Assembly (NCBI GenBank): GCA_039934315.1 | Contig: JBDTMK010000001.1 | Span: forward strand, 1-31,814 | Origin: Pyrinomonadaceae bacterium | Lineage (GTDB): Bacteria > Acidobacteriota > Blastocatellia > Pyrinomonadales > Pyrinomonadaceae | Direction of reading: 5' to 3' | Length of the DNA: 31,814 bases | Shown: positions 19,602 to 24,542 of the stretch, one piece after another | Layout: each line of letters opens with the position of its first letter | How positions within the stretch are numbered: position 1 is the stretch's first letter | The notes under the pieces: generated by a model | Database searches by the model: none | The model's input: only the letters and a program-made list of their open reading frames with translations | Told to the model about the DNA's origin: nothing | Translations under genes and position numbers: made by a program

Positions 19602-19647
19602 GCGTACTTCAAACGTCAAAGTTCCATTTAAGTAAGGAGTGCAGGTT

Positions 19648-21765
19648 GTGACAAGAATACTACTTTGCCTTAGTGCAATGATCGCAGGCAGCTTGATCGT
19701 TGCCGCCCAGGAAACGATGAAACCACCCGTTGCGAAGAAAGAACCAAAAGTCCTGAAGATCCACGGTTACACGATAACCGACAACTACGCGTGGCTGCGC
19801 GATCGTGAGACGCCGAAGAAGCCTGAGATCGTCAAGTACCTCGAAGAAGAGAACGCGTACACCGAGCATCACATGGGCCAGCACAAAGAGTTTGTCGCCG
19901 ATCTCTACAAAGAAATGCTCGGCCGCATAAAGCAGACCGATCTGAGCGTTCCGTACAAGCTCGGCGATTACTGGTATTTCAATAAGACGGAAGAGGGCAA
20001 ACAGTATCCGACCTATCTTCGAAGCAAGACCAAGGACGGCGCCAATCCGGAAATGCTGCTTGATCAGAACGAGATGGCGAAAGGCCTGAAATTTCTGTCG
20101 ATCGGCGCCTTCGAGCCGAGCGACGCCGGGAATCTACTTGCGTTTGCGACCGATTCAACCGGTTACCGGCAATACACTTTGCAAATAAAAGATCTCCGAA
20201 CCGGCACAATACTTCCGGAAAAGATCGAGCGAGTTACAACGCAGGAATGGTCGAACGACGGCAAGTACATTTTTTACGTTCAAGAGGACGCAGTATCGAA
20301 GCGTTCCGACAAACTTTTCCGGCATACCGTCGGCAGCCGCGATCCCGACAAATTGATCTTTGACGAAAAGGATGTGCTGTTCGGAATCACCATCGGCCGT
20401 TCGCGCGACAGGAAGATGATGTTTCTTTCTTCTTACGCAAAGACAATGCGCGAGGAGCGATATCTTGCGGCGGATGATCCGCTTGGCGAGTTCAAGTTAA
20501 TAAGCCCGCGTCGTGAAGGTCACGAATACTCGGTCGATTACGACAACGGTGAGTTTTATATCGTGACCAACAAGGACGCCGAGAATTTCAGAGTGATGCG
20601 TGCACCGGCAAATGATCCCGGGGAAAAAAGCTGGGTAGAGTTCATCGCGCACGACCCGGCGATCAAGATCGAAGATATAAACTTTTTCAAAGATTACGCG
20701 GTTGTCTCCGAGCTCGAAAATGGCCTGGAATATATTCGTGTGATGGATCGAAAGACGCGCCGGGCCACGACTCGGATCGCGACTCCCGAGAGCGTGTACA
20801 CGATGTCTCTTGGTGCAAACCCTGAATATGACACGCCCATAATTCGGTACATCTATGCATCGATGATCACGCCGAACTCGACATACGAATTCGACTTCAA
20901 AACGCGAAAGAGCGAGCTGATCAAACAGCAGGAGATCCCGAGCGGCTACGACAAAGCGCAATACGAGACTACGCGAGTGTGGGCGACGGCTCGCGACGGT
21001 GTGAAAGTTCCGATCTCCATCGTGATGAAGAAAGGAACCAAGCTCGACGGAAAATCGCCTATGCTGCTGTACGCGTACGGCTCGTATGGTGCTTCGATGA
21101 CACCGAGTTTTTCGACTGCCCGGCTGAGTCTCGTGGATCGCGGAATGATCTATGCGATCGCTCACATTCGCGGCGGCGGCGAGCTTGGTGAGAGGTGGCG
21201 CATGGAAGGACGGATGTTCAAGAAGCTGAACACCTTCTACGACTTTGTCGACTCGGCGAAATGGCTGGTCACAAATAAATACACCTCCACCGATCGATTG
21301 GTTATCCAGGGCGGATCGGCCGGTGGCCTGTTAATGGGCGCTGTCAGCAATATATCTCCCGAAACGTTTCACGCGGTGATCGCGCAGGTGCCGTTCGTCG
21401 ATGTCATGAATACGATGCTCGACGAAACGCTGCCGCTCACGACTGACGAATGGATCGAGTGGGGAAATCCGAATGAGAAAGCGGCGTGGGACTACATGGT
21501 CCAGTATTCTCCTTACGAGAACGTGAAGGCCCAAAAATATCCGAACATGCTGATCGAGATCTCTCTGAACGATTCGCAGGTGCCCTATTGGGAAGGGGCA
21601 AAACTCGCGGCCAAGATCCGGGAGCTGAAGACGGATGACAATACCGTGCTGCTAAAAGCAAATATGGGGGCGGGACACGGCGGCTCGTCGGGCCGCTACG
21701 ATCGTCTCAAGGAGATCGCGTTCGACTACGCTTACGCGTTGACCCAGGTCGGCATCACTAAGTAG
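19648..21765 (+). CDS. ptrB: Oligopeptidase B (S9A serine peptidase), secreted
   Basis: DNYAWLRD, GGSAGG nucleophile, NDSQVPYWE, GAGHGG. GTG 19648 has an AAGGAG SD; signal peptide present. Confidence 0.9.
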   Translation: MTRILLCLSAMIAGSLIVAAQETMKPPVAKKEPKVLKIHGYTITDNYAWLRDRETPKKPEIVKYLEEENAYTEHHMGQHKEFVADLYKEMLGRIKQTDLSVPYKLGDYWYFNKTEEGKQYPTYLRSKTKDGANPEMLLDQNEMAKGLKFLSIGAFEPSDAGNLLAFATDSTGYRQYTLQIKDLRTGTILPEKIERVTTQEWSNDGKYIFYVQEDAVSKRSDKLFRHTVGSRDPDKLIFDEKDVLFGITIGRSRDRKMMFLSSYAKTMREERYLAADDPLGEFKLISPRREGHEYSVDYDNGEFYIVTNKDAENFRVMRAPANDPGEKSWVEFIAHDPAIKIEDINFFKDYAVVSELENGLEYIRVMDRKTRRATTRIATPESVYTMSLGANPEYDTPIIRYIYASMITPNSTYEFDFKTRKSELIKQQEIPSGYDKAQYETTRVWATARDGVKVPISIVMKKGTKLDGKSPMLLYAYGSYGASMTPSFSTARLSLVDRGMIYAIAHIRGGGELGERWRMEGRMFKKLNTFYDFVDSAKWLVTNKYTSTDRLVIQGGSAGGLLMGAVSNISPETFHAVIAQVPFVDVMNTMLDETLPLTTDEWIEWGNPNEKAAWDYMVQYSPYENVKAQKYPNMLIEISLNDSQVPYWEGAKLAAKIRELKTDDNTVLLKANMGAGHGGSSGRYDRLKEIAFDYAYALTQVGITK

Positions 21766-21799
21766 AAATATCGAGCAGACATTAAAGTCTCGACAAACG

Positions 21800-21836
21800 A
21801 GTCGGGAGGCGTTAACAAAACGCTTCCCGACTTTTT
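21800..21836 (+). terminator. Intrinsic terminator after ptrB
   Basis: 14-bp stem agtcgggaggcgtt / aacgcttcccgact (one G-U) followed by a T run. Confidence 0.85.
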
Positions 21837-21997
21837 GCATTCCGGAGCCGTGTAATTCTCTCATCTTGAAGCATCGGTCCGTCATTGTGACCGATGCGTA
21901 ATTAGAGGCTCCACGCTGAGGTGGTTCTAAAATCCTTGTTTACTGCGTTCATCACCAAAGAAGAGGCTCGGGATTATTGATATCCGATAACTTCACG

Positions 21998-22141
21998 ATG
22001 GCTGCCAATTCGGCGATCGCCGACGGCCTGCTGATCAGCGATGGGCTGCTGATCAGCGACGGCCCGCTCATCAGCGACACTGCTAACTCCCTGTCAAATA
22101 GGGTTCGCGCGAAGGGTGATCTCACGTCGAAAATGCGGTAA
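21998..22141 (+). CDS. Small repeat peptide MAANSAIADGLLISDGLLISDGPLISDTANSLSNRVRAKGDLTSKMR (47 aa), not in the ORF track; the frame is open back to 21920
   Basis: Translated by hand. Three 18-nt tandem units encode DG(L/P)LIS, and a fourth GLLISD copy with different codons lies upstream in frame (21971-21988). Confidence 0.6.
   Translation: MAANSAIADGLLISDGLLISDGPLISDTANSLSNRVRAKGDLTSKMR
22022..22078 (+). repeat. 18-bp tandem repeat, about 3 copies
   Basis: gacggcctgctgatcagc / gatgggctgctgatcagc / gacggcccgctcatcagc / gac. Confidence 0.9.
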
Positions 22142-22316
22142 ATTCCCTTCGCAGGTCAATAGATAGGCTGCCCGAGAGATCGGCGGCCTATCGGTTTCCA
22201 AGGGCCTAGATTATTTTTATGGAAAAATTGCTGCCGTCCGGGATATATTAATAGCGGCGAACTTTCTATCTTTTCGCTCCATCCTTTCTGCCCCCTAAGT
22301 TACCCCGACTCGTCAG

Positions 22317-24542
22317 ATGCCTTCCAAAAGATCCCTCGAGAATATTTATATAGCCCTTCTGTCGCCAGTGGCCGTCTATGCGCTCGGCTGGGCCCTCTAT
22401 AATTTTCCAAGTTCTGTGGTGGACATGCGGTTGGGCGGCCTCGCGATCATTACCGTTTTTTTTAGCTCATTCCTCAGAATCCAACTTCCGAGAACAAAAA
22501 TCCACGTTACAACGTCGGACGCCGCCATCATCCTCACCTTTCTCTGGTACGGCGGTGAGACTGCAATAATACTTTCTTTCCTCGAGGCAGCGTTCACGTC
22601 GGTCAGCTACCGACGGCAGGGCGGGAACATCGGCTACAAAACGATCTTGATAAATATAATGGTCGCGGTCGTCGGGCTCTTCGCCACCACCGTCATAGTA
22701 CATGCGATGTTTTCATCTGAGGCTCCGCAGGTGGTCGAGGCCGGGGATGTGACCCAGATGATCCTGCTGCTCGCAGTGATGGGGTTCGCTCTGTTCTTGT
22801 TCAATTCGACTCTCGTCTCGCTTTTCATCGCGGCGAAAACGGAGAAATCCGTTTTGAGTGTTTGGACGGAGTACTGCCTGAATGCACTCGTAATGTATCT
22901 AAGCGGGGCCGTCCTCGCCGGTTTTACGACGAAAGCGATACAAGACATCAACATTTTTTTGTTCGCCGCGGTGTGCGTTTTTTTCGGAACGGTCTACCTC
23001 ACTTATCGCCGCTACATTAACGACATAAAGACAACCGCTGCCCCGGCCGAGAAAGCCGAGCGGCAACGTGCCGAACAAGCCGAACGCCACGTGCGGGAAC
23101 TCAAACATTATGTCGAACAGCTCGAAAGGAGCGGCGCGGAACTTAAACAAAGTCATGCTCGTTTTCGTCACGCGGCTTATCATGATGCCCTAACGGGATT
23201 GCCGAACCGAAACTATTTCGTCGATACGATACGAAAGCTCATCGAACAAAAAATGACCCAGCCTCTCGTATCGTACGCCGTGCTGTTTCTCGATTTGAAC
23301 GGATTCCGAAAGATCAACGACAGCCTCGGCCACTCGGTCGGCGACCAGTTGGTCAAACAAGTTGCCGGAAGGCTGCTGCAAGTTCAGAGAAAAGACAGCA
23401 TCGTAGGAAGATTCAGCGGTGATGAGTTTGCGATCATTTTGATCGGCGATGCCGACGAGCGCGGCGCCACTGAGTTTGCTCAATCAGTCGTTGATACGAT
23501 CTCGCAGCCTTTCATTCTCAATTCAAAGCAGGTTTTCACAAGCGTGAGCGTCGGAATCGCTTTTGGGAATCTCAATTATGACGAACCCGAAGAAATACTC
23601 CGGGACGTTGACATTGCAATGTACTTCGCCAAAGATCACGGAAATGAGTACGAGGTTTTTGACGAGAAGATGCACACGCGGGCCGTCTCGCTTCTGGAGC
23701 TTGAGACCGATCTGCGATATGCAGTCGAACGGAATGAGTTCGAGCTTCACTATCAGCCAATCGTGGATCTCAAGAATCTGCAGCTTGCCGGTTTCGAAGC
23801 CCTGGTCCGATGGAACCACCCGACGCTCGGTCAGATACCTCCGGACCGTTTTATCCCGATCTGCGAATCCACCGGGCTGATCGTGCCGATCACGCTGACG
23901 ATCCTTGAAACGGCGTGCCAGCAAACCGTGGATTGGCAGAAACGCTTTAGCGAATCGCCACCCGGTTTTGTCAGCGTTAATATTTCGGGGGTTCATTTCG
24001 GGAACCCGTCGCTGGTTGAACAGATCAAGGATGTTCTCCACAAGACCGGCCTCAACCCACAAAGTCTAAAGTTGGAAATAACGGAAACCGCGATCATGGA
24101 GAACGGCGAGAATGCCGTTGCCATGCTGCGTCAGATAAAAGAGCTGGGCGTTCAGTTGAGTATCGACGACTTCGGTACGGGCTATTCAAGCCTCGGTTAC
24201 CTACAGCAATTTCCGATCGACACCCTAAAGATCGACCGCGTTTTCGTCCGGTCGATGGAAGAGGGAAGGCAGAACGGAGAGATAGTTCGCGCGGTCCTTG
24301 CGCTGGCTGGTTCTTTGAGTTTGGACGTGGTGGCGGAGGGGATCGAAAGCATTCACCAGTATCATCAGCTCCGCATATTGTCTTGCGATTACGGTCAGGG
24401 CTTTCTGTTTTCACGGCCGCTCGCAGCCGCTGCTGCCGAAAGCCTGCTTTCGGACCCGAACCGTTGGCAGAGCCTTCTCGCCGGCGGAGATTTTGCGATC
24501 GTTAACCCCGAATACGAGTCCACGAGCTATCAGCTTCACTAA
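22317..24542 (+). CDS. Membrane-bound GGDEF-EAL c-di-GMP enzyme with a multi-TM N-terminal sensor (MASE9-like)
   Basis: About 7 hydrophobic segments; HDALTGLPNR; RFSGDEF; intact EAL set (FEALVRW, VNIS, LEITE, DDFGTGYSSL, LKID, AEGIE, GQG). Confidence 0.9.
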   Translation: MPSKRSLENIYIALLSPVAVYALGWALYNFPSSVVDMRLGGLAIITVFFSSFLRIQLPRTKIHVTTSDAAIILTFLWYGGETAIILSFLEAAFTSVSYRRQGGNIGYKTILINIMVAVVGLFATTVIVHAMFSSEAPQVVEAGDVTQMILLLAVMGFALFLFNSTLVSLFIAAKTEKSVLSVWTEYCLNALVMYLSGAVLAGFTTKAIQDINIFLFAAVCVFFGTVYLTYRRYINDIKTTAAPAEKAERQRAEQAERHVRELKHYVEQLERSGAELKQSHARFRHAAYHDALTGLPNRNYFVDTIRKLIEQKMTQPLVSYAVLFLDLNGFRKINDSLGHSVGDQLVKQVAGRLLQVQRKDSIVGRFSGDEFAIILIGDADERGATEFAQSVVDTISQPFILNSKQVFTSVSVGIAFGNLNYDEPEEILRDVDIAMYFAKDHGNEYEVFDEKMHTRAVSLLELETDLRYAVERNEFELHYQPIVDLKNLQLAGFEALVRWNHPTLGQIPPDRFIPICESTGLIVPITLTILETACQQTVDWQKRFSESPPGFVSVNISGVHFGNPSLVEQIKDVLHKTGLNPQSLKLEITETAIMENGENAVAMLRQIKELGVQLSIDDFGTGYSSLGYLQQFPIDTLKIDRVFVRSMEEGRQNGEIVRAVLALAGSLSLDVVAEGIESIHQYHQLRILSCDYGQGFLFSRPLAAAAAESLLSDPNRWQSLLAGGDFAIVNPEYESTSYQLH

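Follow-up and report, generated by a model that had tools for sequence, protein, structure and literature searches.

Small genes that stand beside a sensor gene and encode repeated short units, which a protease could in principle release, call to mind the exported signalling-peptide precursors of the Phr/CSF type of Bacillus (RRNPP systems). An open reading frame (ORF) of this appearance, encoding DGLLIS-like hexapeptides, lies at 21998-22141 on the forward strand of a 31.8-kb contig from a Pyrinomonadaceae bacterium; the whole contig of 31,814 nucleotides is here called the window, and it belongs to a metagenome-assembled genome (MAG) of 363 contigs that is 72% complete (G000). A reading made from the DNA letters without database searches (the sequence-only reading) had proposed that this ORF and the membrane GGDEF-EAL sensor gene downstream of it form a peptide-signalling module, and had named the retained tail of a deleted peptidase as the alternative. 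The window ORF differs from the Phr/CSF-type precursors in that it lacks a signal or leader peptide, a conserved start and a family of close stand-alone homologues, and it appears to derive from a protease gene by deletion.

Closer parallels are found elsewhere. The gene order at the locus, the six-residue units of the pattern glycine-hydrophobic-x-aspartate followed by a GD..M end, and the downstream membrane enzyme of cyclic di-GMP (c-di-GMP) metabolism are all shared with modules in which a repeat-tailed subtilase of peptidase family S8 is encoded together with a MASE9-type sensor; in the window, however, the protease is gone and the sensor is left alone with what looks like a dead tail fragment. 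The intact orthologues of the genus and the intact paralogous copy on contig C13 of G000 count among these modules. The period of six and the hydrophobic-small-x-x pattern of the tails further recall the left-handed beta-helix (LbH) repeat Hexapep (PF00132), and the tail of a paralogous S8 protein on another contig of the same genome (C13) passes the cut-off of that model. By contrast, the GLLISD-type tail and the remnant have no Pfam hit, and neither tail type is confidently folded by AlphaFold2. Known LbH domains occur in cytoplasmic acyltransferases and not at the ends of exported proteases. Finally, the ORF resembles unitary pseudogenes left by a 5' deletion in its collinearity with the 3' end of a gene that sister species still possess whole at the syntenic position, in having lost the promoter, start and catalytic part, and in its excess of private replacements; it differs from them in that its frame is open, without stop or frameshift, and in that a complete structural unit (six hexapeptides and the end motif) has been kept.

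The comparisons given below lead us to regard the repeat ORF, with a probability of about 0.9, as a recent, non-functional 3' pseudogene remnant of a repeat-tailed S8 subtilase gene, which would be best annotated as a subtilase pseudogene fragment and not as a peptide gene. Three things are new here: an allele from which the protease has been lost naturally, the conservation of a sigma-54 element, and exported tail-only mini-proteins in the S8 slot of four other loci. The locus also amounts to a natural experiment, in that the species has lost the protease partner and yet keeps the sensor under strong purifying selection, with a second intact module elsewhere in the genome.

The missing S8 gene

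Homology with the S8 tail, synteny with intact loci, the missing parts of the gene and the junction in an independent assembly are all matters of observation. In the closest relatives, G102, G089 and G046 (G numbers denote genomes and L numbers the loci examined) the genes run IspA - S9 peptidase - S8 subtilase - sensor - GatA, the S8 slot holding an intact ORF of 848 amino acids (aa) within an open frame of 869-892 aa. G098, with an S8 gene of 847 aa, shows the same order up to the end of its contig, which breaks off within the sensor gene. The window reproduces the relatives' order minus the S8 gene only; its flanking proteins are 77-92% identical to those of G102, G089 and G046 and 65-79% identical to those of G098, and its sensor gene is the ortholog of the genes directly downstream of the intact S8 genes in the former three. 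The long S8 frames in the relatives' loci end in (DGLL[IV]S)n directly before the sensor-gene orthologue. Searches at the DNA level matched the repeat only, several times per contig, in the relatives, and within the window's own genome a degenerate two-unit pattern was confined to this site. The synteny check proposed in the sequence-only reading, with an intact S8 gene at this site named as what would speak against a peptide gene, thus came out in favour of its own alternative, the retained peptidase tail.

When six intact S8 proteins were compared with the window by tblastn, the only match was at 21968-22135, with the best alignment to residues 813-868 of the G006 protein (66% identity, E 8.6e-20); no similarity to the S8 catalytic domain was detected in any frame of 21700-22330, and a Pfam search with the 73-aa frame gave no hit, the subtilase domain PF00082 with its Asp-His-Ser triad included. 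On the upstream side, blastn aligns window positions 21650-21893 with the end of the G102 S9 gene and the S9-S8 intergenic region at 75% identity, while on the downstream side positions 21968-22393 are collinear with G102 (L017) from the last 58 S8 codons and their stop, across the terminator hairpin and the block with the sensor promoter, as far as the start of the sensor gene (alignment A2). Between these, at 21894-21964, stand degenerate remains of the S8 5' leader, which align only patchily with L017 3430-3530 and from which the sigma-54 -24/-12 element is gone. In G102 coordinates the gap measures 2,424 bp, beginning 47 nt before the S8 ATG and extending to codon 790 of 848. Two numberings apply to this gene, the 848-codon ORF counted from the ATG and the 871-aa stop-to-stop frame, in which the same point is residue ~813. 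With the ~2.4 kb went the sigma-54 promoter element, ribosome-binding site and start codon, as well as the parts that encode the signal peptide, the catalytic domain and the first repeat block. CGGG stands at both deletion edges in G102.

The remnant itself (21965-22141; tblastn, A2) comprises the final 58 codons and the stop, and is aligned codon for codon with the end of the 871-aa frame of G102 at 88% aa identity. It contains the ORFs that begin at TTG 21977 (54 aa) and at ATG 21998 (47 aa), the latter codon aligning with a conserved internal methionine codon of intact S8. An array at 22021-22078 (18-bp unit, 3.2 copies, 85% matches, score 88 in Tandem Repeats Finder) is translated as DGLLIS DGLLIS DGPLIS, and together with a GLLISD farther upstream (21971-21988) it forms part of six hexapeptide units in register, GLLISD NFTMAA NSAIAD GLLISD GLLISD GPLISD (21971-22078; alignments A4 and A5). 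Together they make up the second repeat block of the S8 tail in full. They are followed by the last 20 residues (22079-22138) with the family-invariant G-D ... M end motif, in which G51, D52 and M57 are invariant across the 15 sequences of the tail alignment A5 (the remnant and 14 other tails). The frame stays open back to 21920, and TGA at 21917-21919 bounds it on the 5' side. In its description of the ORF the sequence-only reading was accurate, since the 47 aa, the three repeat units, the open frame to 21920 and the fourth GLLISD were all found where it had placed them, and, in line with its remark that the 47 aa show no signal peptide, none is visible in the ORF or as a hydrophobic N-terminus of the longest frame (from 21920).

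Its argument from codon usage fares differently. The upstream GLLISD is encoded by gga tta ttg ata tcc gat, and the different codons among the units had been taken as a sign of selection on the peptide and not of a slippage repeat in the DNA. This unit sits in a conserved SGLLISDNF segment, for which the intact G102 gene has GGA TTA TTG ATA TCC GAC (A2). Since the codons are the same in the intact gene, their variation records past selection on the protease tail and not on a separate peptide.

A history that would account for these features begins with an ancestor that carried IspA, the S9 peptidase, the S8 subtilase, the MASE9-like GGDEF-EAL sensor and a convergent GatA gene. Its S8 gene, transcribed from a sigma-54 promoter, would have encoded a signal peptide, the catalytic domain, two hexapeptide blocks of the type G-hydrophobic3-S-D and the GD..M end. 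A single deletion of ~2.4 kb, which we infer may have run between the CGGG microhomologies, would then have removed everything from the 5' leader through codon 790 of 848 (G102 ORF), sparing only the last repeat block and the C-terminal motif together with the stop codon and the terminator hairpin that follow. On this account the open frame, the GLLISD that precedes the ORF in frame and the synonymous differences between units would all be legacies of a gene on which purifying selection acted until not long ago.

Expression signals and tail-only genes

At 10 of 11 orthologous loci, and also at the paralogue in G000, the S8 start is preceded at a distance of 40-90 nt by a sigma-54 type element, GGCAC-N5-TTGC (L017:3505-3520, with equivalents in L018, L023, L022, L012, L011, L010, L021, L019 and, on contig C13, L024), and the pattern suggests that the S8 protease genes are probably RpoN-dependent. 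Within 20450-23075 of the window the pattern GGYAY-N5-YTGY has no match, even with one mismatch allowed. Further, the native Shine-Dalgarno (SD) sequence, native start and signal peptide of S8 are absent from the remnant. Counted on the tree ((G000,G102),G089),G046, private replacements affect 5 of its 58 codons (D14A, L34P, T40A, T44S, R50K), against none in either G102 or G089, and stand at 2.5% in the window's three flanking genes. Two of the five, L34P at a hydrophobic repeat position and D14A, hit sites that are conserved in all 14 other tails. Synonymous divergence (dS) between G000 and G102 exceeds 1.1, that is, synonymous sites are saturated; an open frame that is nonetheless 88% identical suggests that the deletion is recent, and it may date to roughly the last several percent of the branch. 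Too little time would have passed since the deletion, compared with the age of the split from G102, for a stop or frameshift to arise in the frame.

The tail was searched for in 191 genomes of the genus, G000 included, and is present in 114. The 58-aa frame matches the C-termini of subtilase frames of 840-920 aa in 113 of the other 190 genomes (best E 2.3e-25); nearly all listed matches end frames of several hundred aa, typically 840-920. The listed frames shorter than 100 aa, besides that of the window, belong to contig ends (G017, G048), to a nonsense allele (G124) and to an error-rich long-read assembly (G187). For G187, decay was rejected as the cause, as its S9 and GatA genes are fragmented too, pointing to indel errors of long reads. 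In G124 (L020:1-1543) the first repeat block of the S8 gene is interrupted by an in-frame stop between GIMISD and IMISD, which removes the second block and the end motif; this could be a second route to tail loss or a sequencing error. Among 5.8 billion protein clusters the 54-aa product has one homologue of 30-94 aa (P0001), which was rejected as a chimera, its 531-bp contig of 0.8x coverage being an inverted join of an S8 tail with the 5' part of a sensor gene in antisense. The stand-alone peptide precursor of the sequence-only reading is hence left with a single short homologue on a chimeric contig.

A profile of the tail, run against 1.84 billion protein representatives, retrieved 245 proteins, and most of the short hits are contig-edge fragments. 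At four loci, in four other lineages, the hits are nevertheless complete genes of 82-123 aa that consist of a signal peptide and a hexapeptide tail and stand exactly in the S8 slot before MASE9-like or GNAT genes. One (L049:5876-6166, 96 aa, from an NCBI assembly) has a sigma-54 element upstream and the sensor gene next to it. Another (L050:2103-2390, 95 aa, found in two metagenomes, the second copy being L051) lies in the order S9 - sigma-54 element - SD - mini-gene - sensor. The third (L053:214-462, 82 aa, on an ENA metagenome contig, with the gene also in a second ENA sample) precedes a GNAT gene, and the fourth (L054:135-506, 123 aa, on a Logan contig of a public sequencing run) has an SD upstream and the sensor gene next. 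All four thus have an export signal, and those with sufficient upstream DNA have an SD and/or a sigma-54 element, in contrast to the window remnant, which has none of these. The mini-genes look like protease-less versions of the module, and their architecture suggests that a tail-only product can be maintained by selection. In a blastp comparison of the mini-protein N-termini with S8 signal peptides a single weak hit was obtained (E 0.028); because of this weak homology, an origin of the mini-genes by in-frame deletion is argued from position and promoter, and not from sequence. Together, the sigma-54 element and the tail-only mini-proteins narrow the idea of a hexapeptide tail that links S8 proteases to MASE9. 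The broader claim, which is not specific to the window and is more likely than a functional peptide made from its remnant, that the S8 tail and not the protease domain is what matters to MASE9 is drawn from the replacement of S8 by exported tail-only mini-proteins at four loci, and we put it forward as a tentative and rather doubtful possibility.

Several points weigh against regarding the remnant as dead. The excess of five replacements over none rests on small numbers (one-sided p ~0.03); the frame is still open and 86-88% identical to intact tails, an outcome also expected if purifying selection had continued; 10 nt ahead of TTG 21977 there is a purine-rich stretch, AAGAAGAGG (21958-21966), that might serve as a ribosome-binding site; small genes for a signal peptide plus tail fill the S8 slot at the four loci just described, where selection may keep tail-only products; and the lack of expression of the remnant, in an uncultured organism, is presumed. 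The open frame, the purine-rich stretch and the tail-only genes also favour a remnant that is still translated from TTG 21977 or ATG 21998 into a leaderless tail peptide of 47-54 aa, which would act on the MASE9-like sensor as a reduced module, and so does the pairing of S8 tail and sensor, conserved across genera and at the paralogous locus of G000. Yet every mini-gene elsewhere has a signal peptide, with a clear SD at L050 and L054 and a sigma-54 element at L049 and L050; the intact tail rides on an exported protein, whereas the window product would stay in the cytoplasm; the replacements L34P and D14A fall at near-invariant positions; and a strong S9 terminator stands upstream. Co-folding of the sensor membrane domain with the 58-aa remnant gave a score of 0.02, which is evidence neither for nor against binding. 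We consider such a translated peptide improbable, and attach an equally small chance to its evolutionary extension, namely that the remnant stands near the beginning of a recurrent process of reduction, with loss of the protease and retention of the tail as a partner or signal of the MASE9-like sensor, and with the leaderless 54-aa peptide from TTG 21977 modulating the GGDEF-EAL enzyme. The headline of the sequence-only reading, a peptide-signalling module, is likewise not supported for the window, for the ORF has neither the promoter element nor the signal peptide nor the native start that intact genes and tail-only mini-genes possess.

Against the pseudogene interpretation it could also be held that the S8 gene is missing only from the assembly, through a collapsed or chimeric MAG contig, and that the organism has the full gene; the fragmentation of the MAG, the tandem repeats in the region and the depth of only ~4x in the one run that covers the junction would all fit. 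A separately built Logan contig of that run (X1, record 5, 334 nt), on the other hand, spans 21758-22091 with 2 mismatches and no gaps, crossing from the S9 stop over the terminator and the junction into the repeats, and record 6 extends into the sensor gene. Since X1 probably represents the source sample, the contig checks the assembler rather than the biology; a second run, X2, has parts of the flanking genes at 100% identity and nothing over the junction, and is uninformative as to an intact allele in the same species. Additionally, the junction joins the 5' leader to codon ~813 (stop-to-stop frame) and not two copies of the repeat, and neither the loss of the sigma-54 element nor the private substitutions in the tail would be produced by assembly collapse, which leaves an artefact less probable still than a translated peptide. 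Least probable of all is that the repeat was never coding and is a DNA or RNA regulatory element of the sensor gene, acting through GCTGATCAGC palindrome operators or a structured leader RNA. There are indeed perfect 10-bp palindromes at 22030-22039 and 22048-22057, a near copy at 22065-22075, and hairpins on either side, but the palindrome is the codon string for L-I-S (CTG ATC AGC) inside the coding tail of intact S8 and is absent in relatives with GLLVSD or GVLIGD tails, an Rfam scan of 21600-22500 gave nothing approaching a gathering score, and the sensor has a conserved promoter block of its own.

The sensor gene and the elements around the deletion

The gene that follows the remnant is intact (22317-24542, forward strand like all window features given here) and encodes ~250 aa of membrane helices, a MASE9-like domain of eight transmembrane segments, ahead of GGDEF (Pfam, 3.3e-39) and EAL (2.5e-72) domains, in agreement with the multi-transmembrane GGDEF-EAL protein called by the sequence-only reading. 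Its ratio of nonsynonymous to synonymous divergence (dN/dS) against G102 is 0.04, as expected under strong purifying selection. The describers of MASE9 report no known ligand or signal for it (bioRxiv 10.1101/2021.11.05.467447). PF20972 (MASE9) gave no hit in the window sensor and four homologues with hmmscan at E<=1, and an exact-sequence look-up of the sensor protein returned no record. Comparison of the membrane domain with MASE9 clusters gave 0.91 by Atlas features (206 shared) and TM-scores of 0.79-0.86 between predicted structures, 0.84 among them for the window's sensor, with clusters that in part bear PF20972; these scores indicate a resemblance to MASE9, which is a likeness and not proven membership. 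In the catalytic part the GGDEF motif reads SGDEF and the EAL motif is intact (FEALVRW); phosphodiesterases head the NCBIfam matches, with scores that fall far short of the cut-off in every case. To judge from its motifs, the sensor may act mainly as a phosphodiesterase.

The S9 gene upstream (19639-21765) codes for a prolyl-oligopeptidase-family protein (Peptidase_S9_N 1.4e-98, Peptidase_S9 1.1e-60) that is 91% identical to its G102 ortholog, and S9 is the conserved upstream neighbour of S8 in the relatives. It is followed by an intrinsic terminator (21799-21833; a 15-bp stem and a T run, -25.9 kcal/mol, z -5.7) that is alignable in G102 (alignment A1). Next comes a conserved block of the S9-S8 intergenic region (21859-21897), whose core CCGTCATTGTGACCG is common to G102, G089 and G046 (A1) and which includes a hairpin at 21871-21897 (-17 kcal/mol, z -4.1). 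A core within this block, GTCATTGTGAC (GTCA-N3-TGAC), is kept in G102, G089, G046 and L050, and it may be an operator of the former S8 gene. A terminator-like hairpin lies 3' of the former S8 stop (22162-22192; -21.8 kcal/mol, z -3.8; A2), with a GAGA loop in the minimum-free-energy structure. The relatives also have a hairpin after the S8 stop, its G102 equivalent folding at -18.3 kcal/mol. Both hairpins noted in the sequence-only reading as flanking the ORF, including the GAGA loop of the second, are thereby borne out. In a promoter scan the sensor's own promoter region (22213-22262) shows hexamers that resemble a -35 element (at 22220) and a -10 element (ending at 22249), and the region is nearly invariant in G102 and G089 (A2).

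S8 and sensor beyond the window

The genome that lost the S8 gene from the window keeps an intact paralogous module on contig C13 (L024:1105-5360), in which an S8 gene (929 aa) is followed by a GNAT-like gene of 302 aa and then by one whose product has a membrane domain of the same kind as the sensor. The tail of this S8, (GVLIGD)8, scores 30.2 bits with Pfam Hexapep PF00132 against a cut-off of 27, whereas in the remnant and the GLLISD-type S8 proteins the model has no hit. Among 20 sampled loci of the sensor membrane domain in other genera, an S8 gene is directly upstream in 9, drawn from four genera of the family and one other family, with a GNAT gene in between in 4 of the 9; a GNAT gene also separates S8 and sensor in G009. 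The statement in the sequence-only reading that some Acidobacteriota S8 peptidases with repeat tails lie beside membrane c-di-GMP enzymes is thus confirmed in the relatives, at the C13 paralogue and in the 9 sampled loci. A literature search on repeat-tailed subtilase or hexapeptide modules in Acidobacteria found nothing relevant.

AlphaFold2 models of the full G102 S8 protein (18 sequences) and of a 200-aa tail (12 sequences) gave the tails predicted local distance difference test (pLDDT) values of 21-45, that is, no confident fold. Behind the signal peptide, an alpha/beta region of the S8 protein is predicted with pLDDT 75-90 (residues ~60-290 in G102, L017:3581-6124; residues 105-290 in L024). 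Its matches to models of ClpB/ClpA/ClpV nucleotide-binding domains reach E 2.7e-17 but score far short of the family cut-offs; such a domain is odd in an exported protease. In another family of the phylum (G243, locus L047) the S8 protein ends in irregularly spaced SGLIWG units and is followed by a stand-alone MASE9-like protein of 290 aa that carries no output domain.

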